Source: Eggerthellaceae bacterium | Lineage (GTDB): Bacteria; Actinomycetota; Coriobacteriia; Coriobacteriales; Eggerthellaceae | Length of the DNA stretch: 36,822 nt | Assembly (NCBI GenBank): GCA_900753095.1 | Contig: CAADXT010000166.1 | Span: forward strand, 1 to 36,822 | Reading direction: 5' to 3' | Part shown: positions 3,944-33,460 of the stretch, piece after piece | Layout of the letters: the number at the start of each line of letters is the position of its first letter | Numbering within the stretch: the stretch's first letter is position 1 | Notes under the pieces: generated by a model | What the model saw: only the letters and a program-made list of their open reading frames with translations | The model's database searches: none | What the model was told of the DNA's origin: nothing | Position numbers and translations under genes: made by a program

Positions 3944-4052
3944 GGACGAGTAGGGACAGCCCCCTAGCACGGTGAAGTGGAATCGGTCATCCCGCTAAAC
4001 GAGGCAGCACACCCACTTCACTGTGTTAAAGGGGGACTGCCCCTACTCGTCC
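3944..4052. repeat. Long imperfect inverted repeat overlapping the sipW stop codon
   Basis: ggacgagtagggacagccccctagcacggtgaagtgg (3944-3980) pairs with ccacttcactgtgttaaagggggactgcccctactcgtcc (4013-4052). Confidence 0.8.
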
Positions 4053-4666
4053 ACGTCCTGCTCGGATTTTTCCTGCTCGCGCTTCTTGCGCACAAGCTCC
4101 ACTGCCTCGCGCAGGGCCTTCTCGTCCTCGGCACGGGCAACTTCCTTGGTGGACTTCACCAGCTTGGCAATCTCGAAAACCATCAGCACCACCAAAGGCA
4201 AGATGATGAACGGGAAGAACACCAGCGGGTTCGAGAACAGCGAAACCACGGTGCCCAACGCCGCCGAGACGAACACCACGCGGCCCACCACGTTCACCGC
4301 GGCCACCGGCGCTGCGTCCTCAACGGCATTCGCATCGCCCTTGGTATGGAACATCAGCTGGCCGTTTTCCTCGTACACGCTGGTGATGCGGTGCGTGTTC
4401 AACGCGCCTTCCATGGAAGACTCCGTGGCGCGGAAGGTGATGATGTCGCCCACTTGAAGGCTGCTCGGATCAACCTCTTCCGTAACGATGAACGAGTGCA
4501 CGGGAATGGCCGGCTCCATGGAACCGGTAAGCGTGCGCATGAAGCTGTAGCTGCCCAGGCTGGGCACCTCGCCCGCCGGTGTGAACACCGTGCGCAGCAG
4601 CACCACCAGCGCAAGGGCGATAACCACCGCCGCCAGCACGTTCACCACACGAAGCACGTATTTCAT
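4043..4666 (-). CDS. sipW: Signal peptidase I, SipW/Sec11 (ER-type) family
   Basis: N-terminal TM, TGSMEP (catalytic Ser), GDIITF, THRI (His), TKGDAN, C-terminal TM; TAATG overlap with the upstream gene. Confidence 0.9.
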   Translation of the reverse strand: MKYVLRVVNVLAAVVIALALVVLLRTVFTPAGEVPSLGSYSFMRTLTGSMEPAIPVHSFIVTEEVDPSSLQVGDIITFRATESSMEGALNTHRITSVYEENGQLMFHTKGDANAVEDAAPVAAVNVVGRVVFVSAALGTVVSLFSNPLVFFPFIILPLVVLMVFEIAKLVKSTKEVARAEDEKALREAVELVRKKREQEKSEQDVDE

Positions 4667-6681
4667 TACTTGGCGTCCTCAGAAGGCTCATCGGCCGAAT
4701 CCTGCTCCTTGGAGCCAGGTTCGCTGCCGCCTGCAGAAGAAACCTCCTGACCGCGCAAACGCGCCAGCAGGTACTGCGAGAGCTTGTTGCCCTCTGCGCG
4801 CTTCTCGGCACGGATGCGCGCATTCTGGGCTTCCTCCAAGCTGCGGCTCAGCTGGTCGATGCGCTGCTGCATCTCCTGCTTCAGCTGGGCAAGCTCGGCT
4901 GCATGCTCCTTTTGCGCCTGCTCGTGCGCACGAGCCGCGGCATCCATCTGAGCGCGCAGCTGCGCCTCTTCGGCCTCGTGGTTCTTGCGCGCTTCCTCGT
5001 TCGACGACTGAACCGCTGCAAGGCGTGCCTCGGCTTCGGCCTTCGCAGCGGCAACCTGCGCCTTGGCATGCTCGTTTGCCGCCTGCACCTTGCTCTCAGC
5101 GTCGGCGCGCGCAGCCTCAACCTTCTCGGCGGCGTCAACGCGCGCCGCCTTCAGCAGCGCATCGGCATCGGCTGCGGCCGCCTCGATGCGCGCCCTGGCG
5201 TCTTCCTTGGCAGCCTGAGCCTCGGCCTTTGCCGCCTCAACAGAAGCCTGCGCCTCTTCCTTGGCAGCAGAAACCGTGGCTGAGGCATTGTCGAGCGCTG
5301 CCTGCACCTCGGCAGCCATTTCCGCCTGCATGCGCTGCACTTCCGCATCGGTCTCCGCACGCGCCTTGGCCGCCTCCGCCTCGGCGGCACGCTTGCCTTC
5401 CTCGGCATCCTCCAGGGAACCACGCGCGTCTTCCAGGTCGGCTTCCGCAATCTGAGCACGCTGGGTTAGGCCCTCTTCACGCGCCTTGGCCATATCAAGC
5501 TCGTCGGCCAGGTCGTCGCGCTCGTCTTCCAGCGCATGGGCCTGCACCTTCCAGGCCTTCAGCTGGCCTTCCAGCTCCTCAGTTTTCTTGCGCTCCTCTT
5601 CAAGCGCCGCCTCGGCATCAAGCTGCGCCTGTGTAACCTCATCAACGAACACCTTGCGCACTTCCACATCGGGAATATCGCAGCTGTCGACGAACTCTTC
5701 TTTGATCTCCTTGATGAACTTCGGCTGAACCGGCTCACGCTGCTGGCTGGCAAGCTCGGTAAAGTTGCGGTCGTCAGTGGTAAGGCTCTTGAACACCGTG
5801 TAGTTGTTGATGAGGTTGGTGTACATCTGCACCATGTACTCGTCGTCGAAGGCAAGGGCGGAATCCTTTACCTCGATGTTGTAGCCAACCTTGTCGTAAC
5901 GCTCCATGAACTGCCACAGCTGGTAGCACTTGCGGTAGTTCGGGTCCTTCATGATGAGGTTCGTGCGCTGGATAGGACTGCGCACCGTGGCGCACCCCTG
6001 CATAATCTGACAGAACGAGGCGTTGCGCAGCGCCATAACCAAGCGCCGCACACGGTCGATGCGCATGAAGGTGTCGATGTTGTCGGCATCGTTTTCGGCG
6101 AAGTTCTGGCGGTCCTTCACCGTCATCTCGACGTTGTACTCGATTTCCTCGTAGGCATCGCCGATCTTGCTGTGCATGGTGAAGCGGTTGCGAACCTCGT
6201 TGCCCGTCGACCAGAAGATCACGTCCGTACGCTTATCGACGAAGGTGAGCAGGCGCTGGATCAGGTGATAGACGAAGCGGTTCTCGTACAAGTCGTACGT
6301 TTCGGCCATGTTCACGTTCAGGATCTTCGTGGGATGGATGCTGCCATCGTCGGAAGGTGCCAAAAACTGCGTGTTCTGGCTTAGATGGCGCACGCTGTCG
6401 GCGGAAATCTTCTTCGCCAGCGAAACCGGCACCACCTCTTCCTCGGTGGTGATGAAGCGACGCGGCTTTTCGATGATGGTGTTGATGGCGTCAAGCGAAT
6501 CCTCGATAACGGAAATCCATTCCTCATCAACCACCTTAACCAGTTCTTCACGCTGCTGCTCGATGGTGGTATCGGAAGCCTGGGCCATTTCGAACAGGTA
6601 GCGGAAATAGCGGTCGTCTTCCTGAATGGGCTCCATTTGAGTGGCAAAGCTGCCGTACAGATCCTGAATGGTGTCTGACAT
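4666..6681 (-). CDS. DUF2357 (McrC N-terminal-like) domain protein with long C-terminal coiled coil; no nuclease domain seen
   Basis: ETYDLYENRFVYHLI and TNLIMKDPNYRKCYQLW motifs typical of DUF2357; about 300 aa of A/E/K/Q heptad-rich tail; follows the McrB-like NTPase. Confidence 0.75.
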   Translation of the reverse strand: MSDTIQDLYGSFATQMEPIQEDDRYFRYLFEMAQASDTTIEQQREELVKVVDEEWISVIEDSLDAINTIIEKPRRFITTEEEVVPVSLAKKISADSVRHLSQNTQFLAPSDDGSIHPTKILNVNMAETYDLYENRFVYHLIQRLLTFVDKRTDVIFWSTGNEVRNRFTMHSKIGDAYEEIEYNVEMTVKDRQNFAENDADNIDTFMRIDRVRRLVMALRNASFCQIMQGCATVRSPIQRTNLIMKDPNYRKCYQLWQFMERYDKVGYNIEVKDSALAFDDEYMVQMYTNLINNYTVFKSLTTDDRNFTELASQQREPVQPKFIKEIKEEFVDSCDIPDVEVRKVFVDEVTQAQLDAEAALEEERKKTEELEGQLKAWKVQAHALEDERDDLADELDMAKAREEGLTQRAQIAEADLEDARGSLEDAEEGKRAAEAEAAKARAETDAEVQRMQAEMAAEVQAALDNASATVSAAKEEAQASVEAAKAEAQAAKEDARARIEAAAADADALLKAARVDAAEKVEAARADAESKVQAANEHAKAQVAAAKAEAEARLAAVQSSNEEARKNHEAEEAQLRAQMDAAARAHEQAQKEHAAELAQLKQEMQQRIDQLSRSLEEAQNARIRAEKRAEGNKLSQYLLARLRGQEVSSAGGSEPGSKEQDSADEPSEDAK

Positions 6682-6741
6682 TTAATTACCCCACAGGCTA
6701 TAAACACGCCCGGGCGCCGCACAAGCACCCGGGCTGATTCG

Positions 6742-8433
6742 TTAGTGCATGTTCTGGATTCGCTGCAGATACGAAATGCTGTCGGGCAGGCCGCCCTCGC
6801 CGAAGGTCTTCTCGATGTAGTCGATAAGGCCCTGCATCTCGTCGCGCACGAAGCTGACGTTCATCGACTCGAACTTCTTCAGCACCTTGCGGGCGATGAT
6901 GTAGTCCATGCCGCCCAGCTCGGTGCCGCCGCACGCCACGTACACGGGAATGAAGTCGTACATCTGCTTGATGATACGGTTGCCGAACGCCAAGCGAAAA
7001 CGCGTTTGCAGGTACTGGTCGAGCTTGTGCATCTTTTCCAGCAGCTCTTCGGAAACCACGTGCTCCACTTTCGCCTTCTGGAACAGGTACTGCAAGTGCT
7101 CGCTGGTTACGTGCACGCGCTCATGCGGCGGGCACTCGAACGCATCGGCGCGCTCGTTCAGCTCGATGGGGATGGCGCGGTCGTACACCTTGTCGGTGAT
7201 GGTGAAGGTGGAGTCGTCGTTGTTGGCGGTGCCCACGAACCACAGGCTGCCCGGGATGCGGATCTTGCCGTCTTCCAGGCCCTTCGGGTCGCCGTCCCAC
7301 GCAACGGGCACCAAGTCGAGCGTCCATTCGTCCTGGCTGGGCATTTCCAGCACCGAAAGGATCTCGGCGAAGTAGTACTCCACGCGCGCCAGGTTCATCT
7401 CGTCGAGCACGATGTAGCTGGGGTCCTCGCGCAAGCCCGCCTCGTACACAGCACGCAGGAACTCGGTTTCGTTGAAGCGCTTCGAGAACTCGTTGAAGTA
7501 GCCCAGCACTTCCGTGCGGTCACGGTACGAAGGCTGCACCGAAACGATGGTGGCCGGGTTGTCCACATAGCGGCTGAACGAGTACGGCAGCGAGGTTTTG
7601 CCCGTACCGGAGATGCCCTCCAGGATAAGCAGCTTGCTGGCGGCCATGCCCGCCACATAGCGGCGCACGATCTCGGGCGTGTAGTACAGGCCCATTTCGC
7701 TGCAGGCGAAGAAGCGGTAGCCCTCCACGAACTGCTCCAACGTAATGTCGTTGTCGTACACCGGGGGCTGCCAGGTGCGGTACTTCAAGTCGACCATCGA
7801 AAGCTTGGGGAAGCGGTTGGCCTGGGCAATCTCCTTTTGCTCGGCCAGCGTCTTCGCTTCCACCGTGGCCTTGGCCATGGCCGCCGCAGCGCCTTCAACC
7901 GAATCGCTGTCAAGCGAAAGCGAGGCAGAGCCCGCAGCCGGGGCCAGCGCAGTGCCCGTGCCCGATACCGCCTGTTCCCCTTCGCCCGTTACGTTGGCAA
8001 CGGTGGGGATGGTGTCGTCGGTAAGGGCAGAAGCGCCCATGTAGGGAATGCGCTTCGTGCCGCCCATGGCGTTCACCTTCAGTGCCAGCACCTTGTTCTT
8101 CTCGTCCATCAGGTCAAGCACCTGCTTGTTCAGGCGCCCGATTTCGCGGTACAGCACCTTGTTGTCCGACTTGTCGGCCTTAAGCTCGTGGTGCAGCTTC
8201 CAACGGCGCACCAAAATCACCGCGATAAGAACGGGGATGGCAACAAGCAGGGCGAACAGGATAACCGCGCCGATCTTCCCCACGATGTCGAACGTGGTGA
8301 AGTACGTGATGAAGATGTTGAAGTAATCGATCCAACCGAATATCAGCAGGTTCAATATGGAAGCGAACACGGCGGCGATGTTGTACGCCACCTTTGCCAG
8401 CAGTTACCAGGCGAAACTCAGAAACTCGCTCAC
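6742..8433 (-). CDS. Membrane-anchored McrB-like AAA+ NTPase with an in-frame TAA at codon 10 (restart possible at GTG 8391)
   Basis: Walker A GISGTGKT, Walker B VLDEMNLARVEYYF, McrB-type GTANNDDST, DKVYDRA; two N-terminal hydrophobic segments and a short coiled coil. AAGGAG (8442-8447) precedes GTG 8433: MSEFLSFAW*LLAKVAYN. Confidence 0.8.
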
Positions 8434-8498: not shown

Positions 8499-9290
8499 TT
8501 ATTTGCCGGATTCGTCCGAACCCTCTTCAGCGGACTTCGCGGAAGCCAAGGCAGCCTCCGCCTCGGCCTTCAGGCGCTTGGCCTCCGCAAGGGCAGCCTC
8601 CGCCTCGGCGCGTGCGGCTTCCGCCTGCGCACGCTCGTCGGCCGCCTGCTTGGCGGCGCCGGCCTGCTCGGCGTTGGCGGCCTTGGCCTGCTCGCCGTCG
8701 ACGATGGCCTCCGCCTGCTTCATGCGATCTTCCTCGGCCATGGCGCGCTTCAGGTTCATGCCCACGATTACCAGGTGATACACCTGGTAGATGAAGAACA
8801 AGAGCATCGGCAGCACGATGATGATCAAAAAGCCCCATGTGCTGGAGAGCACGTCCATAACCGCACCCAGGTACGGGATCTTGAACGCGTACTTGCCCAC
8901 GATGTCGCCGTCGGCGATAACGTGCTGGTCGGCAAGGTCGTTGTTGTCGCCCTTGGTGGTGTAGCTGTTCAGGCCGTTTACCTGGTTAATCGAAACGATG
9001 CGGTGCGTGTTCAGCGCATACTGGTTGTCGATGATGGTGTGGAACGTGACGATGTCGCCTTCCTTCAGCGTGGAAGGGTCGCACTGCTGGATGATGATCA
9101 GGTCGTTTTCGCCGAAGGTTGGCTCCATGGACTCCGATTGAACCGTAAGAGGCGTAAATCCTGCCAGGCTCGAAACGCTGCCATCGTCTTTCGTGGCCAA
9201 CGTGGTGAATGAGAACAACGCGGCAACCAGGATGATGATCCACATCACCACGCTGACTACAACGGATGCAGCCTTTTTTACTGTACTCAT
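8499..9290 (-). CDS. sipW: Signal peptidase I, SipW/Sec11 family, with Ala/Glu-rich helical tail
   Basis: QSESMEP, GDIVTF, THRI, TKGDNN, two TMs; ATG 9290 preceded by GGAAAGGG. Confidence 0.9.
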   Translation of the reverse strand: MSTVKKAASVVVSVVMWIIILVAALFSFTTLATKDDGSVSSLAGFTPLTVQSESMEPTFGENDLIIIQQCDPSTLKEGDIVTFHTIIDNQYALNTHRIVSINQVNGLNSYTTKGDNNDLADQHVIADGDIVGKYAFKIPYLGAVMDVLSSTWGFLIIIVLPMLLFFIYQVYHLVIVGMNLKRAMAEEDRMKQAEAIVDGEQAKAANAEQAGAAKQAADERAQAEAARAEAEAALAEAKRLKAEAEAALASAKSAEEGSDESGK

Positions 9291-9330
9291 AACGCCCTTT
9301 CCTATGCGCACTGCGCCCTAACGCAGCAAA

Positions 9331-10100
9331 TTACTGATTCTGGGATTCCTGCTGTTCAATGCCCTCGAACCGCATCGACACCGAATAATCGGCTCCTTTT
9401 ACCATATTAGTGCAATTTGGGTCGGTCCCCTCCAACCAGATGCGAACGATTGTCGGTTTGTCGGTATCGCGACCAGGCTAAACATGTTGGCAACCTCGCT
9501 TGACCCCCCAGGTACAATGCCGAACGTTGTCATTTGCCCCGAACCGGAGGCAGTGGCGCCCATATTGGGGTTGTACACCCACGTTCGCCCATCGCACGTG
9601 AAGCTCATGCGCATAGCCTCGGGCAGCCCCTGCACGTTCGAGGTGAACGCCGTGCCTGCCTCGCCGTTGCTGCCTGCCTCGCCGGTAAGGCGCACCACCA
9701 CGTCTTCGTGGCTGATGAAGTGCAGCGTGAACTCCAAGAACGCGCCCGTTTGCGCCTGCGCCGCCGAGCCGTCCTCGTAGGTGAAGCTCTGCCCATCGGA
9801 GGTGGTAACGGGTTGCAGCTTAGACGTGTCGATGTCCACACCGTTTTCCGCCGAGATGCGCGCCGATATCTGGTCGAAGCCCAGCGTGCTTACGTACTGG
9901 TTGAAGTCGTCGTGCGCATCCAGGTCGAAGCGCAGGGCGTTGCCGGCGTTCGCGGTAAGCGCGAACGAGCGCGCCTTGGCATGGTCGGCGATGGAAAACC
10001 ACGCGAACGTTGCCATAGCAATGGCCACCAGCGCAAACAGAACCAGCAGCAACGTGGTTGCCAGGCGGTGGCGCAGGTCTTGCTTTTCCTCTTCCTGCAT
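9331..10100 (-). pseudogene. SipW-class fibre subunit paralogue, frameshifted near 9469 (about 256 aa if repaired)
   Basis: ATFAWFS leader and LQPVTTSDG; the family C-terminus DTDKPTIVRIWLEGTDPNCTNMVKGADYSVSMRFEGIEQQESQNQ* lies in another frame ending at TAA 9331-9333, while the track ORF stops at 9399. Confidence 0.8.
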
Positions 10101-10991
10101 TTACGCCCCCTGTCCGTCAAGCACCGCGAAAAGGTTCACGTGCAAGATGCCCGTGTCGTTGTACAGATAGTCGGCGCTGTCCAAGTCGGTGCCCTCGATG
10201 TAGTAGTACACATCGAGCCGATACGTTGTGCCCAAGTCCATGGTAAGCAGCGTGTTCTGGGGGCGTGTGGCGTTCTCGCCACCCTGCATCATGTAGGAAG
10301 CGAAGTTCTGTGCGTTGTCGTTTGCGCAGGCCAGAGCACCGTTCTTCCAACCCAGCAGCATGCCTTCGGTATAGCCAGAAAGGCCGGTAGGCGCCGTGGC
10401 CGGGTGCTCAGCGCGATGCGAGCCCGCCGTGTCATCGAGCGTGAAGTAGCGGCTCTGCACCACTTCCCCGTTGCGGGAAAGCTTCAAGCCCACACGCGTG
10501 GCCTTCAGCAGCTCGGGGTCGGCGCCCTCTGGCGCCAGGGTGTCGCCCAGATACAGGCTCACCGCGCCCGTTGCCTTCGAGGCGCCCGAGCCTACCATGT
10601 TCGCGCGCATGTCCACCCAACCGTGGTAGTAGTGCTTGCCGTCCTCGGCCTGCACAAAGTGCACGGCGCGGCCCGCCTCGTCGGTGCGGGTGCATTCCGC
10701 AAAGCCGTTCAAGTCGAACGTGGAAACGGGGTAGAGCGTTAAGGGGCTGGAGCTGTTCGAAGAAAAGGCCACGTCTCCCTCTTGCGTCCAGCGGTTCGCC
10801 GAGGCATCGCCCAGCTCCACCACCAGCTTGCTTTCGTCGCTGTGCACCGAAACGGAGTTGGTGTTCACCGCTGTATTGCTGGTGAACCACGCATACGTTG
10901 CCGCCACCAGCACCGCCACGATAACCAGCAGCACCAGCGCCGTGCCCGCCTGCGTGAGCTTCAGCTTGGTTTTTTTCGCGTTCGCTTCCAT
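10101..10991 (-). CDS. SipW-class (TasA/camelysin-like) fibre subunit paralogue
   Basis: Basic N-terminus, hydrophobic helix, ATYAWFTSN; LYPVSTFD; YYIEGTDLDS. Confidence 0.75.
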   Translation of the reverse strand: MEANAKKTKLKLTQAGTALVLLVIVAVLVAATYAWFTSNTAVNTNSVSVHSDESKLVVELGDASANRWTQEGDVAFSSNSSSPLTLYPVSTFDLNGFAECTRTDEAGRAVHFVQAEDGKHYYHGWVDMRANMVGSGASKATGAVSLYLGDTLAPEGADPELLKATRVGLKLSRNGEVVQSRYFTLDDTAGSHRAEHPATAPTGLSGYTEGMLLGWKNGALACANDNAQNFASYMMQGGENATRPQNTLLTMDLGTTYRLDVYYYIEGTDLDSADYLYNDTGILHVNLFAVLDGQGA

Positions 10992-11000
10992 TGCGCCTCC

Positions 11001-11855
11001 TTATGCCTTGGCGCCCGCAAACGCGAACTGAAGGGTTAGGTTCTTCGACTGCGCCTCGGTGATGCAGTTGGCATCGCAGCCTTCCATGTGCACGAAGTAG
11101 CGCACGCTGGCTACCTCGTTCGCGCCTAGCGTAAACAGGGGCTGGGCGCCCGCACGCGTCACGGGGCTCGTACCCGAGCCGTCCATCGTGTGCGAGCCGA
11201 TGCTCTGCGCCGGGTCGGCGACGTAGCTCCACGAGCCCTGGCCGCCTACCACCACGTTGCTCTGCGTGGTGGTGCGCTTCGCCGTTGCCTGGGAGGTGTT
11301 ACCCAAGTCGTCGCACGAGAAGATGTAGGTGTGCGTGCCCGATGCGCTTTGCACCACGAACCCGATGCGCGCCGCCGCAAGCAGCTGAGGATCGGCGGAA
11401 ACGCTCATTTGGCTTTGGTACAGGTACACCGAAAGCGGCGCCTGCGCACCCTTCAGGTACAGGGTGCCGGTAAGGGCATACTCCCCCAGCTGAGAAGTGC
11501 AGTTCCCATAATCGGTGGTGATGCCGCTGGCGTTCTGGAACGTTGAGCGCCAGAAATTGGAAAGGTCGGCGGTGGAAATGGGGTACAGCGTTTTATCGGC
11601 CACCGAAAGCGCGCACTGCGTGTCGAACGGGCCCGCTTCGTTTGCGCTGATAAGCAGGTCGTAGCCTTCTTCCGAAACGGTGTGGGCCACCGGCGTTACG
11701 TTGGTGAAGCGCGAGCTGGAAAACCAGGCGAACGTCGCCGCGGTGAGCGCCAACGCCAACACCACCAACCAGGCAGCGGCGGCAACCATGTGCTTGCGGG
11801 CGGCAAGCACCGCACGCAAGTTCTTCTGGCGTTCGTTGTTTTCAGGCAAAGCCAT
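11001..11855 (-). CDS. SipW-class fibre subunit paralogue
   Basis: Start reassigned to ATG 11855 (MALPENN), just after the upstream stop; ATFAWFSSS; LYPISTAD; VHMEGCDANC. Confidence 0.75.
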   Translation of the reverse strand: MALPENNERQKNLRAVLAARKHMVAAAAWLVVLALALTAATFAWFSSSRFTNVTPVAHTVSEEGYDLLISANEAGPFDTQCALSVADKTLYPISTADLSNFWRSTFQNASGITTDYGNCTSQLGEYALTGTLYLKGAQAPLSVYLYQSQMSVSADPQLLAAARIGFVVQSASGTHTYIFSCDDLGNTSQATAKRTTTQSNVVVGGQGSWSYVADPAQSIGSHTMDGSGTSPVTRAGAQPLFTLGANEVASVRYFVHMEGCDANCITEAQSKNLTLQFAFAGAKA

Positions 11856-11863
11856 AGCGCCCC

Positions 11864-12736
11864 CTACCCCTGGCTCCCGGCAAAGTGCAGCGCCAGCGAT
11901 TCCAGGCTGGTGCCGCACAGGTTGTTGGTGCAGTCTGCGTCGCAGCCTTCCAGCCACACGAACACTTCCACCTGCACGGGCGTGCTGTGCTCAGCGCCTT
12001 CCGCCGCAGCGGGAAGCGTGCACAACTTGGTGCCGGGCTTGGTTACCTTGCCCGATTCCTCGTCGTACTGGCAGTAGTTGCTTGAGTTCAAGAGCCTGCC
12101 CGAGAAATCGACCGTGGAGCCATCGGTTTTCGTGCTGTCCAGCACGCTGCCCGCTTGGCCGTTCTTGGTGTTGTAATTCGCCTCGGGGTTGTGCTCTTGC
12201 GATATCTCGAACACATACTGGCCGGCCACTGGCTTATTTTCGCCTGGCTCGTGAACCAGCAGGCCCACGCGCAGCGCCGAGGAAATGGGGTTGTTGCTAT
12301 CGGTGTCGTCGAACTTAATGTCGGAAATGTACACGTCGGTTGGCAGTGAGCTGGTGGCAAGGTACAACGAGGTTTCGTAGTAGTCGGAGCGCTGCGCCGG
12401 CCCGAAGAACGTTGCCAGCAAAGACGATTGGGTGGGGCCGCCTGTGAAGCCGGTAACCTTTTGGAAACCGTTTTGGATGTTGTCGGTTGAAACGGGGTTC
12501 AAAAGGCCCTGGAACGAAAGGCCCGCATTCGATTTGTACTCACCGTTGTACTCGTTGGAAATAAGGAAGGTTACGCCGGTGCCTGCGGCCATCTTCACAT
12601 CGGTGATGTGGCGGTTTGCGTTGTAGATGTACCAGGCGTAGGTAACCAGCACGGCGGCAAGCAGCGCAACAACCAGCGTTACCAGCATGCGCCGAAAGCG
12701 CTTGCGCAGCTGTTGGGAATCGCGCGCTTCGTCCAT
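11864..12736 (-). CDS. SipW-class fibre subunit paralogue
   Basis: GGAGG RBS; VTYAWYIYN; LNPVSTDN; VWLEGCDADC. Confidence 0.75.
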   Translation of the reverse strand: MDEARDSQQLRKRFRRMLVTLVVALLAAVLVTYAWYIYNANRHITDVKMAAGTGVTFLISNEYNGEYKSNAGLSFQGLLNPVSTDNIQNGFQKVTGFTGGPTQSSLLATFFGPAQRSDYYETSLYLATSSLPTDVYISDIKFDDTDSNNPISSALRVGLLVHEPGENKPVAGQYVFEISQEHNPEANYNTKNGQAGSVLDSTKTDGSTVDFSGRLLNSSNYCQYDEESGKVTKPGTKLCTLPAAAEGAEHSTPVQVEVFVWLEGCDADCTNNLCGTSLESLALHFAGSQG

Positions 12737-24119: not shown

Positions 24120-24169
24120 CTCGTAAAACCTCGTTCTAATATCACTGCTCCGCACGGGAGCCAAGTTTG

Positions 24170-25285
24170 CTAATTTGCAACCTCGTTGCAAGTAACGCCG
24201 GTATCTTCCCAGCTGGAAGGCGCCTCAGCGCTTGCTCGGTAGAAATTGACTATCTCCGAACCGGGCTCGACGATGAATTCCGCGGTTCGCTTATCGCGGT
24301 CAACCGTGCAAGCGGAGCCCTGCCCTGAGTGGTTGGTTTCGAAATACGGATCGAGCTCAACCTTTTCACCCCAGGTGAGCCTTACCCTTGCCGCTTTGCC
24401 AGTGGCGGTAATGCGGTAGTTGTACGCATCGTATTCCTGGATATTTCCGGAATCGGCCCAGCCCTTCTGGACTGATGCGGAATTCACCTTGGAACTCTGA
24501 ACAGGCGTTAGCACCGCCGCTAGGCACGTCAGGGTGGTGCCTGGACTGTTATCGGGGTCGACGTTTGCCTTGATCACAAACTTCGTCTTATCAACCAAAT
24601 CGGTGTTCAGCGTAATCGTGTACTCCTTGATAACGCCCTTGGTGCCGGGAAGCTCAACCGTTCCCGGCGCAGGGCTGATGGACCAACCCTGCGTTACTTC
24701 GCTGCCATCAGTGTTTTTCGCAACAACGCTGAGCGTGTACATTGCTTCTTTGTCGTTAAACACATTCGGGTCGTCCAGCAAGCAGTTGTAGATCTTGAAC
24801 TTGAAGGAGCATTCGCTGCCGCTGGTGTCTACCGCCATGTTGCGCCCCGCCATTTCCCCTTCACTCGGCGTCGTTTTGTAGGGGGCAAGGATGTCGGAGG
24901 CGAACAGGCTCTGCGATTCGCCGGTTACGGGGACCGCCTTCAGGTGGTCGTTCCCGCTGAAGGCGGAATAGGTAAGTCCAGCGCCCAGCAGCAGGGCCGC
25001 GATGGCCACTAAGAATGCAGCAGCCCAAAGCGTCTTGCGTTTTTGGGGCGTTGCCGCCCGGCTGTCCACCGCTTGGTTCAGGGAAGCGGTGAGCGATTGC
25101 TTTTGCTCGGGCTGGCGTGCGTGCTTGCCCTGCGCGGTTTCGGGCAGGCTCGTACCACGTGCAAACCTGCTGCGCGAGCGCCTGCCTTGGTACTTGTCGC
25201 GCGCGTACTTGCTCAGGTCGTCTTCGCTTTGGCCTGCGCCCTGCGCGTGCTTGCCCTTATACATGTCGTTTCGGTTTTCGGTCAC
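24170..25285 (-). CDS. Accessory exported protein with SipW-like leader after a charged cytoplasmic N-tail
   Basis: Start reassigned to GTG 25285 (GAGGGGAGG RBS); GKHA occurs twice in the tail; hydrophobic helix ending LTYSAFSGN; beta-rich body. Confidence 0.65.
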   Translation of the reverse strand: MTENRNDMYKGKHAQGAGQSEDDLSKYARDKYQGRRSRSRFARGTSLPETAQGKHARQPEQKQSLTASLNQAVDSRAATPQKRKTLWAAAFLVAIAALLLGAGLTYSAFSGNDHLKAVPVTGESQSLFASDILAPYKTTPSEGEMAGRNMAVDTSGSECSFKFKIYNCLLDDPNVFNDKEAMYTLSVVAKNTDGSEVTQGWSISPAPGTVELPGTKGVIKEYTITLNTDLVDKTKFVIKANVDPDNSPGTTLTCLAAVLTPVQSSKVNSASVQKGWADSGNIQEYDAYNYRITATGKAARVRLTWGEKVELDPYFETNHSGQGSACTVDRDKRTAEFIVEPGSEIVNFYRASAEAPSSWEDTGVTCNEVAN

Positions 25286-25299
25286 TGTTCCCCTCCCCT

Positions 25300-26034
25300 C
25301 TACGACTGCGAACCGGCCGAGCGCGCAATGAGGTACGCCACGTCCGATTCCTTCATGTTTTCGCTTTTTGGCCACGAGCATTCGATGATGAAGTTGGTGG
25401 CGTCAGCGGGATCGGTGCCGCCATTGTTGAGATCATCCACGCTGAACTTCTTCCAGCGGTACGTGGGCACTGATTTGCTTTGGACGTTTCCGTAGTCGCC
25501 AAAAGTGCCTTTCTTGGCAGTATCCGAAGCTATCGTGCCGTCGAACGTAACTTCAGCGCCTTTGCTCCACGAGTACTTTTTTCCTGCTCCATCGCGCCCT
25601 GTCACATCGCCCGGGGCATTTTCATCGTTCACCTGTACGCGATATACGTGAACACCCAAGTCTTTGATGTTGGTGGTGTTCGCAACCTGCAGCTCGAAAG
25701 CTTTCTTCTTCCCGTCTTCACTCTGCCCGCTTTTCACGCAGAACGCACGGCGGCGAACCACCTTGCCATCGGTAGTTTTAGCGTCGTCGGAATCAGCATC
25801 GTAGGTAAGGTCGAGCTGCTCAGTTGCCGTTTGGTTGGGGCCCATGATCTTAAGCTCGGCCGGCGCGTCCACCTTGGCCACGGTGGAAAGCTCGCTGTTG
25901 GTTAAGAACCACGAAAGCGTTAAGGCAATAAGTATCAGGATGGTGGCCACCACTGCGATGGAAGCCAAAATGGGGCCGCGATGCTCGTAGATCCATTCCT
26001 TTGCGTTGCTCAAGCGGGCTTCTGCACTGCTCAC
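25300..26034 (-). CDS. Accessory protein with SipW-class leader
   Basis: LIALTLSWFLTN; GTGA overlap with the upstream stop. Confidence 0.7.
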   Translation of the reverse strand: MSSAEARLSNAKEWIYEHRGPILASIAVVATILILIALTLSWFLTNSELSTVAKVDAPAELKIMGPNQTATEQLDLTYDADSDDAKTTDGKVVRRRAFCVKSGQSEDGKKKAFELQVANTTNIKDLGVHVYRVQVNDENAPGDVTGRDGAGKKYSWSKGAEVTFDGTIASDTAKKGTFGDYGNVQSKSVPTYRWKKFSVDDLNNGGTDPADATNFIIECSWPKSENMKESDVAYLIARSAGSQS

Positions 26035-27023
26035 TGGCCAGTCCCCCTTGGAGTTTCATCTGCGCTCAGCTGGAGCTGCAGGTATTCCACGTTGTTGCCG
26101 AGGTAGTCGTCGGCCTTGTTGTAGTAGTCGGCGCACTGCCCAAGAGCGGCTGATTTCATCTCGTTGCTCAACTCAGGGATTGTTGCACCGTCGCCATAGC
26201 CGTAATAGAAATAGTCCCTATGCCCATTAACGTACGTTTGCATGCTGGTGTAGTCCTCGCTTGCTGAGGCGAAGATGTTTTTGTAATAGTTGGCGTTGCC
26301 GGTGTACACAAAGTTCTGGAGGTACTCGGGCCATACCCAACTGAGCACCACCTGCACAGGCCTGGTGGTATTGCCCGATTCGTCTTGGAACTTGCTCTTC
26401 TCAATAACAATAGAATCCGTTACATGGTTCGAGTAGAAGCCTGCATCGCTGCATGCGGTAAAGAACAGCAGGTGGCCCTTCGCCAGCTTGAGCGTATCGG
26501 GCATGTTTTGCTGCGTGCAATCGCTTTCCTTAACGAGGGTTCCGTCCCCGTCCTTCAGCTGCAGAACGCGGGAGATGTCGATGGTTGCACCATTCAAGTC
26601 CTTCGTAAGGGGCTGTACCGTGAACTTGATTTGGCCACGAGCACCCGGGTACAGGCTGCCGCTCGTGTAGTTGTTCAGGTTGGAGTTCAGCGTCACCGTC
26701 ATCGAGTTGGAGGTGTCGAAGTTGGTGGCTGTTTTGTCCTGCTCGTAAGCGCCAACATTGCTCCCCTTCTCCGTTTCAACAAGCGCCAGCTTCGCCCTTT
26801 CCGCGCTTATATTCACGCCGCCGGCGTTCACCTGGGTGTTGTTCAGAAACCACGCCAAACAGGCAAGGATGATGACGATGGCAGCCATAACGAACAGCCC
26901 GCTTACCATGAAACGCTTCCAGAAATCCTTCAGCGTTTGAGCGTGCTCGTCGGCGGTGGCGCGATACTCTTCTGCCGTTTTTTCGCTGACTTCCTGCCGG
27001 ATATGTTGGCCCTTGCCCGTCAT
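26031..27023 (-). CDS. Accessory protein with SipW-class leader
   Basis: IILACLAWFLNNTQV; LYPGARG motif of the kind seen in TasA/camelysin-like proteins. Confidence 0.7.
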   Translation of the reverse strand: MTGKGQHIRQEVSEKTAEEYRATADEHAQTLKDFWKRFMVSGLFVMAAIVIILACLAWFLNNTQVNAGGVNISAERAKLALVETEKGSNVGAYEQDKTATNFDTSNSMTVTLNSNLNNYTSGSLYPGARGQIKFTVQPLTKDLNGATIDISRVLQLKDGDGTLVKESDCTQQNMPDTLKLAKGHLLFFTACSDAGFYSNHVTDSIVIEKSKFQDESGNTTRPVQVVLSWVWPEYLQNFVYTGNANYYKNIFASASEDYTSMQTYVNGHRDYFYYGYGDGATIPELSNEMKSAALGQCADYYNKADDYLGNNVEYLQLQLSADETPRGTGQ

Positions 27024-27639: not shown

Positions 27640-28896
27640 CTAGAAATCAAGACTGTTTGGGTTAAGGAGGAAATCGTATACGTTCATCATCACGATTCCG
27701 TCCTCGTTGTAGTAGGGAGCAGGGCCTTCCTTGGTAATGATGATTTTCTTGAACCCATCGTTTGCCTTCAGCAGCGATCTTTGCTCTTGCTGAATTTTTT
27801 CGGCACTTGGAAGAGCAAACGCAGACTGAATGTAATACCGCTTACTGCCGCGGTTACATACAAAATCAATCTCAAGCTGCATACGTTGGCTTTTCCCCAG
27901 CTCGTTCTTGCCGCTTGACGCAACTACGCCGACGTCAACCCCCAAGCCACGGCCAACCAGTTCGTTGTAGATAACATTTTCCATGATATGCGTTTCTTCG
28001 ACTTGCCTGAAATTCATCCGGGCATTGCGCAACCCCAAATCGGTGAAATAGAACTTGAACGGCGTGCCTATGTAGCGACGGCCCTTCACGTCGTAGCGTT
28101 TCGCCCGCCTGATTAAAAACGAGTCTTCAAGATACGAAATATAATGCTCTATCGTTTCTTGAGCTATGCTCGCATTTTTCTTGCTTTTAAACGTTGCAGA
28201 AAGCTTCGAGGCGTTCGTAAGCGAGCCGATGCCCGAAGAAAGAACGTCGATAAGCTCTTCCAAATTCGAGGTATCGCGAATGCCGTTGCGGTCTACGATG
28301 TCACTCACGTATAGCTCGTCGTAGAGCCCGCTCAAGTAGTCAGCCTTTTCTTCTGGCGTTTCCCGAAGCAAAACCCCCGGAAGGCCGCCGTAAACCGAAT
28401 ATTCTTCGTAGCCATCCCTCTTATCGCCCGAGTAGGCGCCCATGAACTCCGAAAAGCTCAAAGGAGCCATGGGGATTTCCTCACCGCGCCCTCTGAATTC
28501 AGTGACAACATCGCGTGAGAGCAGCTTTGCGTTACTGCCGGTAACGTACACATCTATCCCGTCCATCGCGATAAGGTCGATGAGAATCTCTGCGAAATCG
28601 CCAAGAAGCTGCACTTCGTCGAGCAGCACATAGCGCTGCCCCTTTGTTGATTGCGCCCATTCTGATACGTGCTGGTAAAACGTATCAGGGTCACGATACG
28701 CGCGGCTGCTAAAGCGGTCGAACGCCATTTCGAAGATGTTGGATTCGGGCACGCCCTGCTCAAGCAGGTAGTTTTTGAATAAGTTGAACACCAGAAAAGA
28801 CTTGCCGCATCGCCGTAGCCCCGTCACAACCTTAACCTGGTTGCGCCCCATGCTTTTCACAAGCTTTTCCATGTATTTAGGCCTGGCGATTATCAT
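27640..28896 (-). CDS. ATP-binding protein, AAA_14 plus DUF4143 family
   Basis: TGLRRCGKS Walker A, LLDEVQ, VTGSNAKLLS, KFYFTDLGLRN, EIDFV; start taken at ATG 28896 (MIIARPKY) after AGGA. Confidence 0.9.
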   Translation of the reverse strand: MIIARPKYMEKLVKSMGRNQVKVVTGLRRCGKSFLVFNLFKNYLLEQGVPESNIFEMAFDRFSSRAYRDPDTFYQHVSEWAQSTKGQRYVLLDEVQLLGDFAEILIDLIAMDGIDVYVTGSNAKLLSRDVVTEFRGRGEEIPMAPLSFSEFMGAYSGDKRDGYEEYSVYGGLPGVLLRETPEEKADYLSGLYDELYVSDIVDRNGIRDTSNLEELIDVLSSGIGSLTNASKLSATFKSKKNASIAQETIEHYISYLEDSFLIRRAKRYDVKGRRYIGTPFKFYFTDLGLRNARMNFRQVEETHIMENVIYNELVGRGLGVDVGVVASSGKNELGKSQRMQLEIDFVCNRGSKRYYIQSAFALPSAEKIQQEQRSLLKANDGFKKIIITKEGPAPYYNEDGIVMMNVYDFLLNPNSLDF

Positions 28897-28906
28897 CGGA
28901 AATCCT

Positions 28907-28944
28907 ATCTGATTTTTTTGCATCTATAGCAAATTTTATCAGAT
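28907..28944. promoter_or_regulatory. Palindromic operator-like site over the ATPase promoter
   Basis: atctgatttttttgc (28907-28921) and gcaaattttatcagat (28929-28944) flank a minus-strand TGcTATAGA -10-like element. Confidence 0.45.
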
Positions 28945-29101: not shown

Positions 29102-29223
29102 CAGAAAATGAAAGAGCTGGGCGCGAAGCCCAGCCTAAGTTAATGAGCACCACCCGTAGCTAATCGACTTTCCACCCCGGTTAGTATCAGCGGGCGCTGC
29201 TTATGGCTCGATTATAGCATGGC
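29102..29223 (-). ncRNA. Candidate small RNA, copy 2, with promoter and terminator
   Basis: Consensus extended -10 TGcTATAAT (29211-29219), same scaffold as copy 1, 17-nt variable segment (29164-29180), same terminator hairpin. Confidence 0.6.
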
Positions 29224-29816: not shown

Positions 29817-29852
29817 AAAAAGAAAAAGCCCCGAGCGCAATGCTCGGGGCTT
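29817..29852 (-). terminator. Intrinsic terminator of the putative major subunit gene, next to a REP-like palindrome at 29854-29880
   Basis: Stem aagccccgagc/gctcggggctt, then TTTCTTTTT on the minus strand. Confidence 0.85.
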
Positions 29853-29892: not shown

Positions 29893-30738
29893 CTATGCCG
29901 TAGCCGCCTGAACGCCTACGAAACCAAGGTTGCCGGTAACCGCTCTGTCGATACCAGTTTTAGCATTCTCGGAGACGCAATCCTTGTCGCAGCCTTCATA
30001 CCATACGCGAACAGTGACCGTCTTCGGGGCATCATCGGAAATGGTAACGAGCTTATCGGTGCCCTTTTCCGCCTGGCCATTGCTGTCAACAGAGCCAGCG
30101 TAGTTGTTAAAATCGGAATACGTAGCAGAAGCAATAGATTCAGCCCCCGTTACCCAATAGTCGCCTTCCGTAGCGCCCTTATCGGTGTAATAGCCACTCT
30201 CAGTTGCGGTGCCATTTACCTTAAACAGCTTCCAAGTTGCACCGTCATCAAAGCTAATTGCAAAGCGGCCAGCAGTGCCCATCTTAGTTTCAGCGACAAG
30301 ACTAGTGGCTGCACCCTTATCGAAATAGATGTCCATCGAACCGTTAGTTACGCCCAAAGTAAAGGTGTAGTCGGCATAAACGGTCTTGCCGTCTTCGTGA
30401 GTAAGAACGCTCTGGTACTCGTCGGCAACTGCATGATTGCTACCGGTGTCGCCGCTCGTCCAATGCTTCGTTTCGTAAAAGGCTTTACCATCGTTGGTAG
30501 AAGCGGGATAAAGCTTTTTCGGGTTAGTGCCAGCCGCAGTCATGTTGTCTGCCGTTTTGCCCGCATCGGTAATGTACAGGTTCGGCACGGACGACGTGGT
30601 GCTCACATCAACGCCCTCTGCGGTAACCGCATTGTTGTTCACAAACCATGCGAACGTGGCGGCGCCGAGGGCTATGGCGGCTACGATCACCATGGCAATG
30701 GCAGCGCCGAGCTGCTTTTTCAGTGCCTTAGTTTCCAT
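29893..30738 (-). CDS. Putative major SipW-class fibre subunit, monocistronic
   Basis: AAAGGA RBS; METKALKKQLGAAIAMVIVAAIALGAATFAWFVNN; LYPASTNDG; VWYEGCDKDC; own upstream region and terminator. Confidence 0.8.
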   Translation of the reverse strand: METKALKKQLGAAIAMVIVAAIALGAATFAWFVNNNAVTAEGVDVSTTSSVPNLYITDAGKTADNMTAAGTNPKKLYPASTNDGKAFYETKHWTSGDTGSNHAVADEYQSVLTHEDGKTVYADYTFTLGVTNGSMDIYFDKGAATSLVAETKMGTAGRFAISFDDGATWKLFKVNGTATESGYYTDKGATEGDYWVTGAESIASATYSDFNNYAGSVDSNGQAEKGTDKLVTISDDAPKTVTVRVWYEGCDKDCVSENAKTGIDRAVTGNLGFVGVQAATA

Positions 30739-31610: not shown

Positions 31611-32789
31611 TTATGCGGGCGGGTTTTCCTGGTTGCGGCGGGTGTCCCACGTAACCTGGTTGTTCTTGTAGTAGTCGGGGGCGTCGTTGCCGGAAGCGCT
31701 GATGGGGTCGTTGCCGGTAAGGGTATCCAGGATATCCTCCACGAACTTCGCTATCAGGCTGGTTTCCTCGGCATCGTCGGCATCGAAGTCCATGGCGAAC
31801 TCCACTTCACCGCCGATGATGCTGTCCACGCATTCGGGGTCGTCGCCGTCAAGCCAGATTACGACGGTGTACTTGTCCACGTAGCCCAGCTTGAAGTCCT
31901 CGTCGGAAATATGGCACACCGTGTCGTCCGACTCGAAGTTCTCGCAGCCCGCCTCGTTGCCGCCGTTTGCGGCGGGGGCAGCATACGTAATGGCCTCGCC
32001 GTTGCGGTACACGCGCACGCGCGCGGCCTTTTCGGCGCCCTTAGACGCAGACACGATCTTAAGCTTGGCGTCGTAGTTCAGGTCTTCCTTGCCCGCGTTG
32101 CGGATGTAGAAGGTGTACGCCACATAGCTTTTGCCGTTGTGGCTGCCGTCCACCTGATCGAGGTTGTCGGGCAGGTCGGTAACGGCAATGTTGGTGCCGT
32201 CAGCCACCGCTTCGGCGCTAAGGCGCGCGGTTGCCCCCTCGAACTGGGCGTTGTCGGCAATGGCAACGCCGCGCCTGAACAGCTCCAGGCGGTTCAGGTT
32301 GATGGTGAAGTTGCCCATGTTCTCCTGCATGAACGAGATGCCGAACAGCACCGCCATGAACAGCGCCAGGCACAGCAGCACCTTCTGCAACGTGCCGATG
32401 CGCAGAAGCGCCGCGCCGATACGGTGCATGCGGCGCTTGGGCAAGTACATGGAAACGATGGCTTCCGCATCGATGTCGGCGTCTTCGGCAAGGGCGTCTT
32501 CCAGCTCTTGCACGCGCAGCATTTCCTTTTTCGAGAGCCGCTTGGAGCGACGCTTCCCGCGAAAGCCGCGCTTCTTTTCAGGGCTCGCGGATTCGGAGGC
32601 AGCTTTGGCGGAACGAGCGGCCTTAGCTTCACCAGCGGATTCCGCTTGTGACCCTTCCGCTCTCTCATTCACGCCCGCAACTTCCCGGGCATCCATTTTC
32701 GAAGCAGCTTCCTGGGCGTTCGCCTCTAGCGCTTCCGCCGGTTGGGCATCGTTGGGCTCTTCGCCCTTCTTTTTGCTGAACAATGCCAT
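31611..32789 (-). CDS. Single-pass membrane protein with a fibre-subunit-like extracellular domain (candidate anchor)
   Basis: About 130-aa charged N-tail, TM VLLCLALFMAVLFGISFM without the AWF site, then YTFYIRNAG and YTVVIWLDGDDPEC. Confidence 0.7.
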   Translation of the reverse strand: MALFSKKKGEEPNDAQPAEALEANAQEAASKMDAREVAGVNERAEGSQAESAGEAKAARSAKAASESASPEKKRGFRGKRRSKRLSKKEMLRVQELEDALAEDADIDAEAIVSMYLPKRRMHRIGAALLRIGTLQKVLLCLALFMAVLFGISFMQENMGNFTINLNRLELFRRGVAIADNAQFEGATARLSAEAVADGTNIAVTDLPDNLDQVDGSHNGKSYVAYTFYIRNAGKEDLNYDAKLKIVSASKGAEKAARVRVYRNGEAITYAAPAANGGNEAGCENFESDDTVCHISDEDFKLGYVDKYTVVIWLDGDDPECVDSIIGGEVEFAMDFDADDAEETSLIAKFVEDILDTLTGNDPISASGNDAPDYYKNNQVTWDTRRNQENPPA

Positions 32790-32794
32790 GAGAA

Positions 32795-33460
32795 TCAGAT
32801 CTTATACTTGGCGCGCACGTAGCCCATGTATTCCTTCATGGCCTCGCGCTCCAGATCGTCGGCATAGCGGAACTGCAGGCCGCATGCGTTGCGGTACAGG
32901 CTGCCCTTCGGCGCCTGTCGAAGCCAGCACACAATGCCCAGCTGATCAGGCAGTTCGTGGCGCTCGCCATTCAAGCGGATAACGGGCATCTGCACCTGCA
33001 GCGCCTCCCCCACATCGGGAAAGTCGTTCAGGTACATTGCCAAGCCGCCGGCGGAAACGTCGATGGTCATGGCGTCTTCGCGCTCGTCTTCCGTGGCGTT
33101 GTCGCGCTGATAGTGCAAGCGCATGGAAACTTTGAAGCGCTCATCGCGGCGCTTGAAGAACGTGCGGTGCTCGGCCACCTGGCGCATTTTCCAGTACGTG
33201 CGGATGCCGGCCTTTTCCACCGATTCGGGGTAGCCCGCCACCATAAAGGTGTTTTCGCCCACGCTGTACTGCATGAGGAACTTCTGGTTTTCGTCCAGGA
33301 TAAGCGGCTTGCCCGCCAGCATGGGCACGCTGATAAGGAAGTACGCTTCGTCGACAGCGCCCTTATACGTGGCCATCATGTTGAAATCGGTTTTCTGCCC
33401 CATGGGCACGTCGAAAGCTACCTGCAGCTTAGTTCCAGGCTTTATCTGCAACTCGGCCAT
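32795..33460 (-). CDS. PilZ-domain protein (YcgR-like N-domain plus PilZ), putative c-di-GMP receptor
   Basis: RRDER (RxxxR) and DVSAGG (DxSxxG); start reassigned to ATG 33460 after GGAAGGAAGG. Confidence 0.85.
   Translation of the reverse strand: MAELQIKPGTKLQVAFDVPMGQKTDFNMMATYKGAVDEAYFLISVPMLAGKPLILDENQKFLMQYSVGENTFMVAGYPESVEKAGIRTYWKMRQVAEHRTFFKRRDERFKVSMRLHYQRDNATEDEREDAMTIDVSAGGLAMYLNDFPDVGEALQVQMPVIRLNGERHELPDQLGIVCWLRQAPKGSLYRNACGLQFRYADDLEREAMKEYMGYVRAKYKI

Follow-up and report, generated by a model that had tools for sequence, protein, structure and literature searches.

The SipW substrate TasA of Bacillus subtilis is cut at the site T-W-A|A-F. According to the part of PMC10269814 that deals with it, an aromatic residue at the P2' position (Phe) characterises TasA, a SipW substrate. 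Bell et al. (eLife 2024, PMC11090510), in the passage devoted to it, gave a large clade of McrB-like GTPases belonging to the NxD branch the name CoCoPALM and deferred its study; the features given there are a GTPase fused with an FtsB-like domain (transmembrane segment and coiled coil), coiled coils on both the McrB and the McrC homologues, and linked signal peptidases. Here we describe a locus of an Eggerthellaceae bacterium (Coriobacteriia, Actinomycetota) which probably encodes a CoCoPALM-type surface fibre system dependent on SipW-like signal peptidases. The window analysed is the whole contig CAADXT010000166.1 of 36,822 nucleotides (nt), assembly GCA_900753095.1, and the source genome is a bin of 1.72 Mb in 172 contigs, 94% complete.

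The locus spans positions 4043-33724 with every gene on the (-) strand, and comprises 16 genes when the giant gene is counted once and an AAA_14/DUF4143 insertion is included. Read from the right, the order on this strand is PilZ, a bitopic membrane protein, the presumed major subunit, the AAA_14/DUF4143 insertion, three cassette leader proteins, the pieces of the giant gene, four subunit paralogues, signal peptidase B, an AAA+ protein (the McrB-like GTPase), a DUF2357 protein and signal peptidase A. All the parts named by a first-pass annotation of the contig were found on the (-) strand; it had counted about 15 genes ending at 33460, a position that is the likely start of the PilZ gene, whose open reading frame (ORF) is open to 33724.

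Conservation of the locus and its cassette

A neighbourhood set seeded on the major subunit comprised 18 loci (cited below by L numbers) from Eggerthella sp. CAG:368, from uncultured Senegalimassilia, Collinsella, Coriobacteriaceae and Eggerthellaceae bins, and from one bin each of Lachnospiraceae and Eubacteriales, and the gene order was constant across all of them as far as each extends. The gene of the bitopic, membrane-tethered protein adjoined that of the major subunit in 18/18 loci. The PilZ gene came next in 15 of the 18, the remaining three being short contigs that begin inside the tethered-protein gene. The four paralogues and peptidase B then followed in all loci extending there, the AAA+ gene came next in seven loci, and the DUF2357 gene and peptidase A were present in the three loci that reach them (L010, L021 and L023). 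The conserved core thus begins with PilZ, the tethered protein and the major subunit and, past a cassette of variable content, continues with the four paralogues, peptidase B, the GTPase, its DUF2357 partner and peptidase A.

Genome samples gave the same picture of co-occurrence. In 201 genomes of the class Coriobacteriia, the 12 with an AAA+ match of at least 81% identity were exactly the 12 with subunit-profile matches, on the same contigs, while two further genomes carried weak AAA+ matches only and no subunits. In 201 genomes of the order to which the Lachnospiraceae genome belongs, both were found in two genomes, weak AAA+ matches without subunits in six, and a leader-only match in one. 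A strong AAA+ match was found in 14 genomes of the two samples and in all 14 adjacent subunit genes were present. The AAA+/DUF2357 pair and PilZ are parts of the system. The distribution was patchy, with 0/24 other genomes of the same genus and 0/16 others of the same order in one set, and 2/5 other genomes of the same genus in the class sample. The GTPase is the most conserved protein of the locus, with 65-68% identity between phyla against 23-47% for the subunits, a difference compatible with horizontal transfer of the locus as a whole and rapid evolution of its exposed parts. The proposed co-occurrence of the components in other genomes was thus upheld by the 18 loci and the 14 genomes, and judged from gene order and co-occurrence the locus is one conserved multi-gene system and not a chance neighbourhood.

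What varied among the 18 loci was the content of the cassette, the interval that separates the major subunit from the four paralogues. Three leader proteins and the giant gene occupy it in the window and in L008, L011, L012, L018 and L022, and more distantly in L010; an unrelated stretch of 4.7-5.5 kb is found there in L013, L014, L016, L017 and L020, and almost nothing in L021 and L023. In two Eggerthellaceae loci, L024 (11926-16914) and L025 (4334-9319), a cassette protein of 1662 amino acids (aa) bears a leader of the family type (...TSLAWFINGKEVD), whereas the giant protein of the window has an ordinary Sec signal peptide. The G+C content of the giant cassette (13000-21000) was 0.53-0.54 against 0.59-0.62 in the core (4000-12000), which fits an acquisition of the cassette separate from the core.

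The giant gene (13298..24191, (-)) would encode a secreted protein of ~3,620 aa if read through, close to the 3,600 aa first proposed, but in this genome it is present as three ORFs of 326, 1155 and 2141 aa parted by a TGA and a frameshift. The protein carries GLUG-like GG-h-h-G repeats, 11 + 7 motifs being counted against shuffle means of 0.5 and 0.4; the 11 in the middle piece are mostly 35-43 residues apart and form two runs. Glug-family Atlas leads for the giant scored 0.92-0.93, and neither a Pfam match at E<=1 nor an LPxTG motif was found in it. By its size, export and repeats the giant protein is a putative adhesin. Its C-terminus (...KLEGIDH), which resembles the motif of the subunit family, was tried as a pilin-like domain and rejected (hhalign probability 0.1%).

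Comparison with the other loci revealed that several genes of the window are broken. The giant gene has an in-frame TGA at 23211-23213 and a frameshift at ~19701-19760, and these are read as lesions since the three pieces match, one after the other, a single ORF without interruption in each of L011, L012, L018 and L022; the giant frame of L010 contained 0 stops, the junctions being left out of the alignment. One paralogue is split into an N part at 9522-10088 and a C-terminal motif at 9349-9447 in another frame, while its intact counterpart in other genomes is one frame of 257-270 aa. Within this gene a contig from run X1 shows an additional base, at 9468; the lesions were compared with Logan contigs of low depth, which are informative at 9468 and gave nothing usable at 8404, ~19720 and 23211. 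The GTPase gene has an in-frame TAA at codon 10 (8404-8406), and its intact form P0274 (563 aa, 100% identical over the aligned part) was found on 39 contigs. The AAA_14/DUF4143 ATPase gene (27640..28923, (-); PF13173 97.6 bits, PF13635 68.8 bits) does not belong to the system and is missing from the corresponding place in the other loci. It is situated between direct repeats at 27368-27629 and 29030-29223, where intergenic segments of 62 nt (98% identity), 67 nt (84%) and 43 nt (79%) are repeated, and a 39-nt element with a hairpin occurs in 4 copies between 27591 and 29880; from these repeats the region (27368-29223) looks like an insertion or a local duplication.

With a GTPase nonsense codon, a frameshifted subunit and a giant gene broken twice, the locus may be inactive in this genome, and there is about an even chance that it is a non-functional remnant here, whatever the system does elsewhere. 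Besides the four lesions and the AAA_14/DUF4143 insertion, this is favoured by the open state of the same genes elsewhere, namely P0274 on its 39 contigs and the uninterrupted giant frames of L010, L011, L012, L018 and L022. Against it, the source is a metagenome bin of 172 contigs and the contigs available for comparison had low depth, so that the single-base lesions may be assembly errors; the independent contigs bear on one lesion only, a restart of the GTPase at GTG 8391 is possible, and the genes of PilZ, the tethered protein, the peptidases and the core subunits are open. Breaks were also seen elsewhere: in L020 (Coriobacteriaceae bacterium AM49-12) the PilZ, tethered-protein, major-subunit, one paralogue and GTPase genes are broken, and a TAG in the GTPase gene of G066:C8 and a TAA in a paralogue of G180:C9 were recorded. 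These could be due to recurrent decay, phase variation or assembly quality.

Leader proteins, signal peptidases and predicted fold

The motif table indicated that eight of the eight leader proteins, predicted before as SipW-class, share one leader shape, a basic n-region followed by a hydrophobic helix and [T/C]-x-[A/S]-[W/A]-[F/Y]. Full-length paralogues are four, at 29893-30738, 11864-12736, 11001-11957 and 10101-10991, all on the (-) strand. The presumed major subunit (29893..30738) has the leader ATFA|WF and a predicted all-beta sandwich, and 427 relatives of it were found; 41 nt past the stop of its gene a terminator-like hairpin with a T-run (29826..29852, (-); 11 pairs, 8 of them G-C) was recognised by consensus match only. 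The paralogues at 11864..12736 (leader VTYA|WY) and 10101..10991 (ATYA|WF) matched profile A2 with E 1.7e-61 and 1.1e-61, respectively, and that at 11001..11957 (ATFA|WF), which probably starts at a point downstream of the GTG of its ORF, gave the best family-profile match (E 2.5e-80). The frameshifted paralogue (9349..10100, (-); listed ORF 9399-10100) has the leader ATFA|WF and aligned to the family with hhalign probability 98.4% and E 8.9e-15.

The three cassette leader proteins, all on the (-) strand, were progressively less similar to the family. The protein at 26031..27023 (leader CLA|WF) is family-like over its N-terminal 76 columns (hhalign probability 95.3%, E 2e-8), that at 25300..26034 (LTLS|WF) over 47 columns which correspond to the leader and the first strand (probability 87%), and that at 24170..25381, with the TasA-like leader LTYS|AF, gave a leader-only profile match. 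The mature part of the last had no detectable relative in any known family, and the protein accompanies the giant gene in L008, L011, L012, L018 and L022.

Neither Pfam nor NCBIfam yielded a family for any of the eight leader proteins, for the tethered protein or for the pieces of the giant, and NCBI records gave no protein names for 5 cluster members across three clusters of family relatives. A family-profile search of 1.84 billion proteins returned 8478 representatives at E<=1e-3, 3628 at 1e-10 and 284 at 1e-30; because 8478 representatives were matched and no library family was, the subunit family is large and lies beyond library coverage. Alignment of 23 paralogues and orthologues revealed the invariant residues T28, A30, W31, P78, R158, E248, G249 and D251. 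A second alignment of 98 sequences was composed of 88 of the 150 listed representatives, hand-picked mainly for near-full length, together with six locus orthologues, three paralogues and the window protein; A30 and W31 were invariant in it, T28 was at least 90% conserved, and so were the two Cys of the E-G-C-D-x-D-C block.

Two signal peptidases of the archaeal/endoplasmic reticulum (ER) type are encoded, peptidase A at 4043..4666 and peptidase B at 8499..9311, both on the (-) strand. With 91.0 and 113.2 bits both exceeded the cut-off (51.85) of the model TIGR02228 for archaeal-type signal peptidase I, whereas neither reached the 190 bits required by NF046067, the SipW equivalog of B. subtilis (95.2 and 102.6 bits); peptidase B also matched Peptidase_S26 (27.3 bits). 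The earlier naming of two SipW peptidases holds for the number and the archaeal type and not for the equivalog, and by these scores both are to be regarded as SipW-like and not as SipW orthologues. They carry the motifs SMEP, THR and GDAN (peptidase A) and SMEP, THR and GDNN (peptidase B), which we take to be the catalytic Ser/His/Asp motifs of the class, SMEP, THR and GD[AN]N. Peptidase A has membrane segments at the N- and C-terminus and a charged cytoplasmic tail, and there is a 1-nt overlap between the start of its gene and the stop of the DUF2357 gene; peptidase B has a membrane segment at the C-terminus and a cytoplasmic tail rich in Ala and Glu. The eight leaders would be cut after Ala by these peptidases. 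A third signal-peptidase match elsewhere in the genome (G000:C125:2863-3099, (+)) reached 31.1 bits, under the TIGR02228 cut-off. The motif LPxTG was found in 0/18 locus ORFs and no sortase family occurred among the family-library matches of the window proteins, which supports the proposal of a sortase-independent system.

The relation to TasA was found in the leader. Against 20 PF12389 members from Bacillota genomes (20 of 30 loci, taken in listing order) the family profile aligned over the leader only (33 columns, hhalign probability 95.4%, E 1.9e-8), and several of these members have leaders such as ...GGATMAWFTD, close to that of the subunit family. Since the leaders match and both have an aromatic P2' residue, with small residues at -3 and -1, the leader class is, as far as sequence tells, common to the subunit family and the TasA/camelysin proteins. 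The idea of TasA-like subunits stands for the leader, which is homologous to that of PF12389, but finds no clear support in the mature domain, which gave no PF12389 match and structural matches of Z 5.1-5.3 at best.

A confident AlphaFold2 (AF2) model of the major subunit (pLDDT, the predicted score of the local distance difference test, 85.1; predicted template modelling score, pTM, 0.81) showed the leader helix and then an all-beta domain, with a pLDDT of ~57 in residues 31-40 after the cut. In a wide VIA structure search with this model the TasA fibre 8aur was at the top (Z 5.1, root-mean-square deviation 3.9, 127 residues aligned), followed by the Sulfolobus acidocaldarius thread (Z 4.9), cannulae (4.4) and bundling pili/ABP (4.3), while in a second structure search FimA came first (Z 5.3). 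These leading matches, all of low Z, are subunits of filaments built by strand donation. A three-copy prediction of the mature major subunit (31-281, alignment A2) had a score of 0.00 and a mark of 0.42 and is evidence neither way.

The GTPase pair and the PilZ module

The McrB-like AAA+ GTPase (6742..8433, (-); open ORF from GTG 8391, 549 aa) has Walker A GISGTGKT, Walker B VLDEMN and GTANNDDS. It is built of an N-terminal hydrophobic hairpin, a short coiled coil, a low-complexity linker and the AAA+ domain, with hydrophobic segments that cover residues 1-24 and 30-67 and, after them, a heptad-like stretch that is conserved. Its match to Pfam AAA_5 (16.3 bits) is below the cut-off of 22, and Atlas leads also pointed to AAA_5. 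With phmmer against PDB sequences the midasin AAA_5 (E 0.002) and the Thermococcus gammatolerans McrB 6ut3 (E 0.085) were matched, the latter over the region from Walker B to N-x-x-D; with a profile of 8 AAA+ orthologues against the same sequences, both matches were lost. The invariant GTANNDDS can be read either as N-N-D followed by D, as in the NxD clade, or as N-x-x-D, the reading under which HMMER aligned it to the NTAD of McrB. As the evidence from its own sequence is weak, the class of the GTPase is decided by its DUF2357 partner. At least 8000 database relatives of the GTPase were found.

The McrC-like partner (4666..6681, (-)) matched DUF2357, PF09823, at residues 53-182 (E 3.4e-11, 43.3 bits, cut-off 23.3), and it has an Ala/Glu/Lys-rich coiled-coil tail of ~300 aa and no membrane segment. 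No nuclease family was matched in it at E<=5, the sole other match besides DUF2357 being a weak one to FAM195, and the tail matched only coiled-coil chains (PDB sequences) and SMC; a degenerate nuclease fold in residues 183-340 is possible. Relatives P0393-P0512, at least 91% identical over the first 345 residues, are 441-774 aa in total, and therefore the tail (window 4666-5700) is hypervariable in length among near-identical strains; no DNA tandem repeats that might explain this variation were found in the gene. Among the matches listed, a peptidase domain was fused to the DUF2357 protein in 0/120 close relatives. No FtsB/DivIC match in Pfam at E<=5 was obtained for the GTPase, though the membrane and coiled-coil architecture is present. 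Because this architecture, the DUF2357 partner and the association with peptidases agree, the locus very likely belongs to the CoCoPALM kind.

The tethered protein (31611..32789, (-)) is a bitopic membrane protein with one hydrophobic segment, residues 124-157. It consists of a charged cytoplasmic N-region with the conserved DIDxDAIVSMYMPKRR, one membrane helix and a conserved ectodomain that ends in W-L-D-G-D-D-P-E-C, a block of the subunit family, while the cleavage motif is absent. The membrane-tethered relative described before is present, but its kinship with the subunits is limited to that C-terminal block.

The stop of the PilZ gene (32795..33460, ORF open to 33724, (-)) lies 5 nt ahead of the start of the tethered-protein gene. 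The PilZ protein has a YcgR-like N-domain and a PilZ domain (PF07238, 35.8 bits, cut-off 22.5), its PilZNR match (20.6 bits) being under the cut-off. It has the motifs RRDER and DVSAGG, and among the orthologues DxSxxG was conserved in 16/16 and RxxxR in 14/16. By domain and motifs it is a predicted receptor of cyclic diguanosine monophosphate (c-di-GMP). The whole genome gave 10 GGDEF matches and one PilZ match, that of the locus, and c-di-GMP output of the PilZ type may in this organism run mainly through the locus. Scans of the window with Rfam at gathering thresholds and for tRNAs gave 0 matches, and therefore no c-di-GMP riboswitch was seen there.

Other genes flank the locus on both sides. 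On the left, a gene (3-3848, (-)) outside the conserved locus, truncated at the end of the contig, encodes a surface protein of >1282 aa. Its domains are FMN_bind, Tp47 domains a and c, a Shr-like one for haem binding and FIVAR, and it carries a sorting-like signal, APKTG. On the right (34442-36820, (+)) the locus is bounded by fhaA (FhaA_N + FHA) together with a gene for a PP2C phosphatase, with which the conserved actinobacterial cell-division/Ser-Thr signalling cluster begins.

Proposed fibre assembly, alternatives and described relatives

For the proposed fibre system the following course may be envisaged. The eight leader proteins would be exported by Sec and cut after Ala (A30 in the major subunit) by the two SipW-like peptidases, and the beta-sandwich subunits so released would assemble without a sortase into a fibre on the cell surface, possibly by donating an N-terminal strand, the low-confidence stretch after the cut. 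The uncleaved tethered protein would nucleate or anchor the fibre at the membrane, and PilZ would couple this step to c-di-GMP. A membrane-bound GTPase ring with its McrC-like activator would drive or gate assembly, and the cytoplasmic tails rich in Ala and Glu, which all three carry, might link it to the peptidases; the cassette, three adaptor-like leader proteins with the giant GLUG-like protein, would supply a swappable adhesin. The roles of major, minor, anchor, tip and energiser are those that we infer for these parts.

Several results weigh against this proposal. PF12389 matched 0/8 leader proteins of the window at E<=0.01 and 2/98 relatives weakly (best E 8.3e-4), TasA was absent from the PDB-sequence matches of the family profile, the sole match being a nanobody (E 0.072), and by these searches the mature subunit domain is without detectable sequence relation to TasA. 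In structure, Z scores of ~5 are under the level that the tool treats as meaningful and beta-sandwiches of carbohydrate-binding modules and MAM domains score alike, while Foldseek with the major-subunit model gave no match at E<=1e-3 in the PDB. The tethered protein has in common with the subunits only the C-terminal W-x-[ED]-G-x-D-x-x-C block of 36 columns (hhalign E 2.1e-5), and the AF2 model of its membrane and ectodomain part was unusable (pLDDT 58, pTM 0.53). No finding points to a target of the GTPase, the literature on 'CoCoPALM' consists of the naming paper and its preprint versions, with no experiment on any member, and four gene lesions are present in this genome.

These results leave some room for a different product, in which the leader proteins would form a SipW-processed coat, a hydrogel-like matrix or secreted binding proteins and no pilus, the GTPase pair acting as export regulator or quality control. 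Such a product is unlikely. It would agree with fold matches to pilins that are no better than those to carbohydrate-binding modules and MAM domains, with the lack of an invariant Lys or Asn for an isopeptide lock among the eight invariant residues, and with TasA-family proteins, which form matrix rather than pili in the parts of PMC9674648 and PMC11580942 that concern them. It accounts less well for five to eight paralogues in a fixed order beside one membrane-tethered relative, for the single well-conserved subunit gene followed by a terminator-like hairpin, and for large adhesin-like genes swapped in and out. Because of these ordered paralogues, the hairpin after one subunit gene and the swapped genes, the layout is that of multi-subunit fibres.

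The strongest form of the fibre proposal, in which the GTPase ring is a true assembly or retraction motor, the fibre is built by strand donation and PilZ is a c-di-GMP clutch on the tethered base protein, is doubtful and we regard it as improbable. If it were true, this would be a third kind of nucleoside triphosphate-driven pilus machine in monoderm bacteria, beside type IV and conjugative pili, and one common to gut Actinomycetota and Bacillota by horizontal transfer, with exchangeable giant adhesins.

It is very unlikely that the pair of McrB-like and DUF2357 proteins serves defence, as a derivative of type IV restriction comparable to the CoCoNuTs which merely rides in or guards a surface-protein island and might, for example, sense phage attack at the fibre: every case of DUF2357 and McrB-like GTPases studied so far concerns defence, according to the relevant text of PMC11090510, and the locus is as patchy as defence islands (0/40 other genomes in one set, 11/200 in the class sample), but no nuclease or DNA-binding domain was detected in the pair, the GTPase N-terminus is a membrane anchor, the pair stands between two peptidase genes in 3/3 loci extending there, from two phyla, the strong AAA+ match was never without subunit genes in the 14 genomes, and the GTPase is more conserved between phyla than any other protein of the locus.

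For a fibre system of CoCoPALM type, what is apparently new here is the member from Actinomycetota, the conserved module of PilZ, tethered protein and major subunit, the swappable adhesin cassette and the decay in this genome. CoCoPALM loci are abundant in gut bacteria, as indicated by the relatives of the GTPase and the representative clusters of the subunit family. The fixed module points to c-di-GMP control, the Coriobacteriia member gives a precise predicted cleavage site, A30|W31, and natural variants with and without the giant adhesin cassette, and with broken genes, are available. Should the fibre exist, it would be a candidate for a structure used in colonisation by Coriobacteriia common in the human gut (Collinsella, Senegalimassilia, Eggerthellaceae bins).

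Among the described systems, sortase-assembled Gram-positive pili depend on LPxTG and a pilus sortase, neither of which was found in the window locus. Archaeal donor-strand filaments (the S. acidocaldarius thread, the Pyrobaculum calidifontis bundling pili, cannulae and Tafi) and chaperone-usher pilins were among the top structural rows for the major subunit. Their subunits are, as in the subunit family, beta-sandwiches exported by Sec or Tat; they scored Z 3.8-5.3 and have no sequence relation to the major subunit. We know of no archaeal donor-strand filament or chaperone-usher pilus that uses a McrB-like GTPase.

The tapA-sipW-tasA operon of B. subtilis and sipW-bsaA-bsaB-bsaC of Clostridium perfringens are like the window locus in the ER/archaeal-type peptidase, the homologous leader, the paralogous exported proteins and the lack of a sortase; unlike it, they are compact, with 3-4 genes, and without the GTPase pair, PilZ and the tethered relative. 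The isopeptide triad of the BsaA type, as given in the pertinent part of PMC11580942, has no counterpart among the invariants of the subunit family. PilZ proteins of the YcgR/MotI type have in common with that of the locus the architecture of a PilZN-like domain and PilZ, as well as RxxxR and DxSxxG, while their partner is the flagellar motor and the partner here would be the membrane protein of the fibre base or the GTPase.

With McrBC the window pair has in common the AAA+ alignment from Walker B to N-x-x-D and the DUF2357 N-domain of McrC. McrBC has a DNA-reading N-domain and a PD-(D/E)xK nuclease, neither of which was found by Pfam in the window pair, where a membrane anchor and coiled coil stand instead, and the genomic context of the pair is protein export and not restriction-modification. 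The view that no characterised system has this composition is correct as to experiments, but the combination of GTPase, McrC-like protein and peptidase is already in print as CoCoPALM. Its one paragraph in PMC11090510 deals with neither the subunit family and its leader motif nor PilZ, the tethered protein and the adhesin cassettes. The McrB-like GTPase with a membrane and coiled-coil N-terminus, the coiled-coil DUF2357 partner, in which no nuclease was detected, and the adjacent signal peptidases are what CoCoPALM and the window locus have in common.

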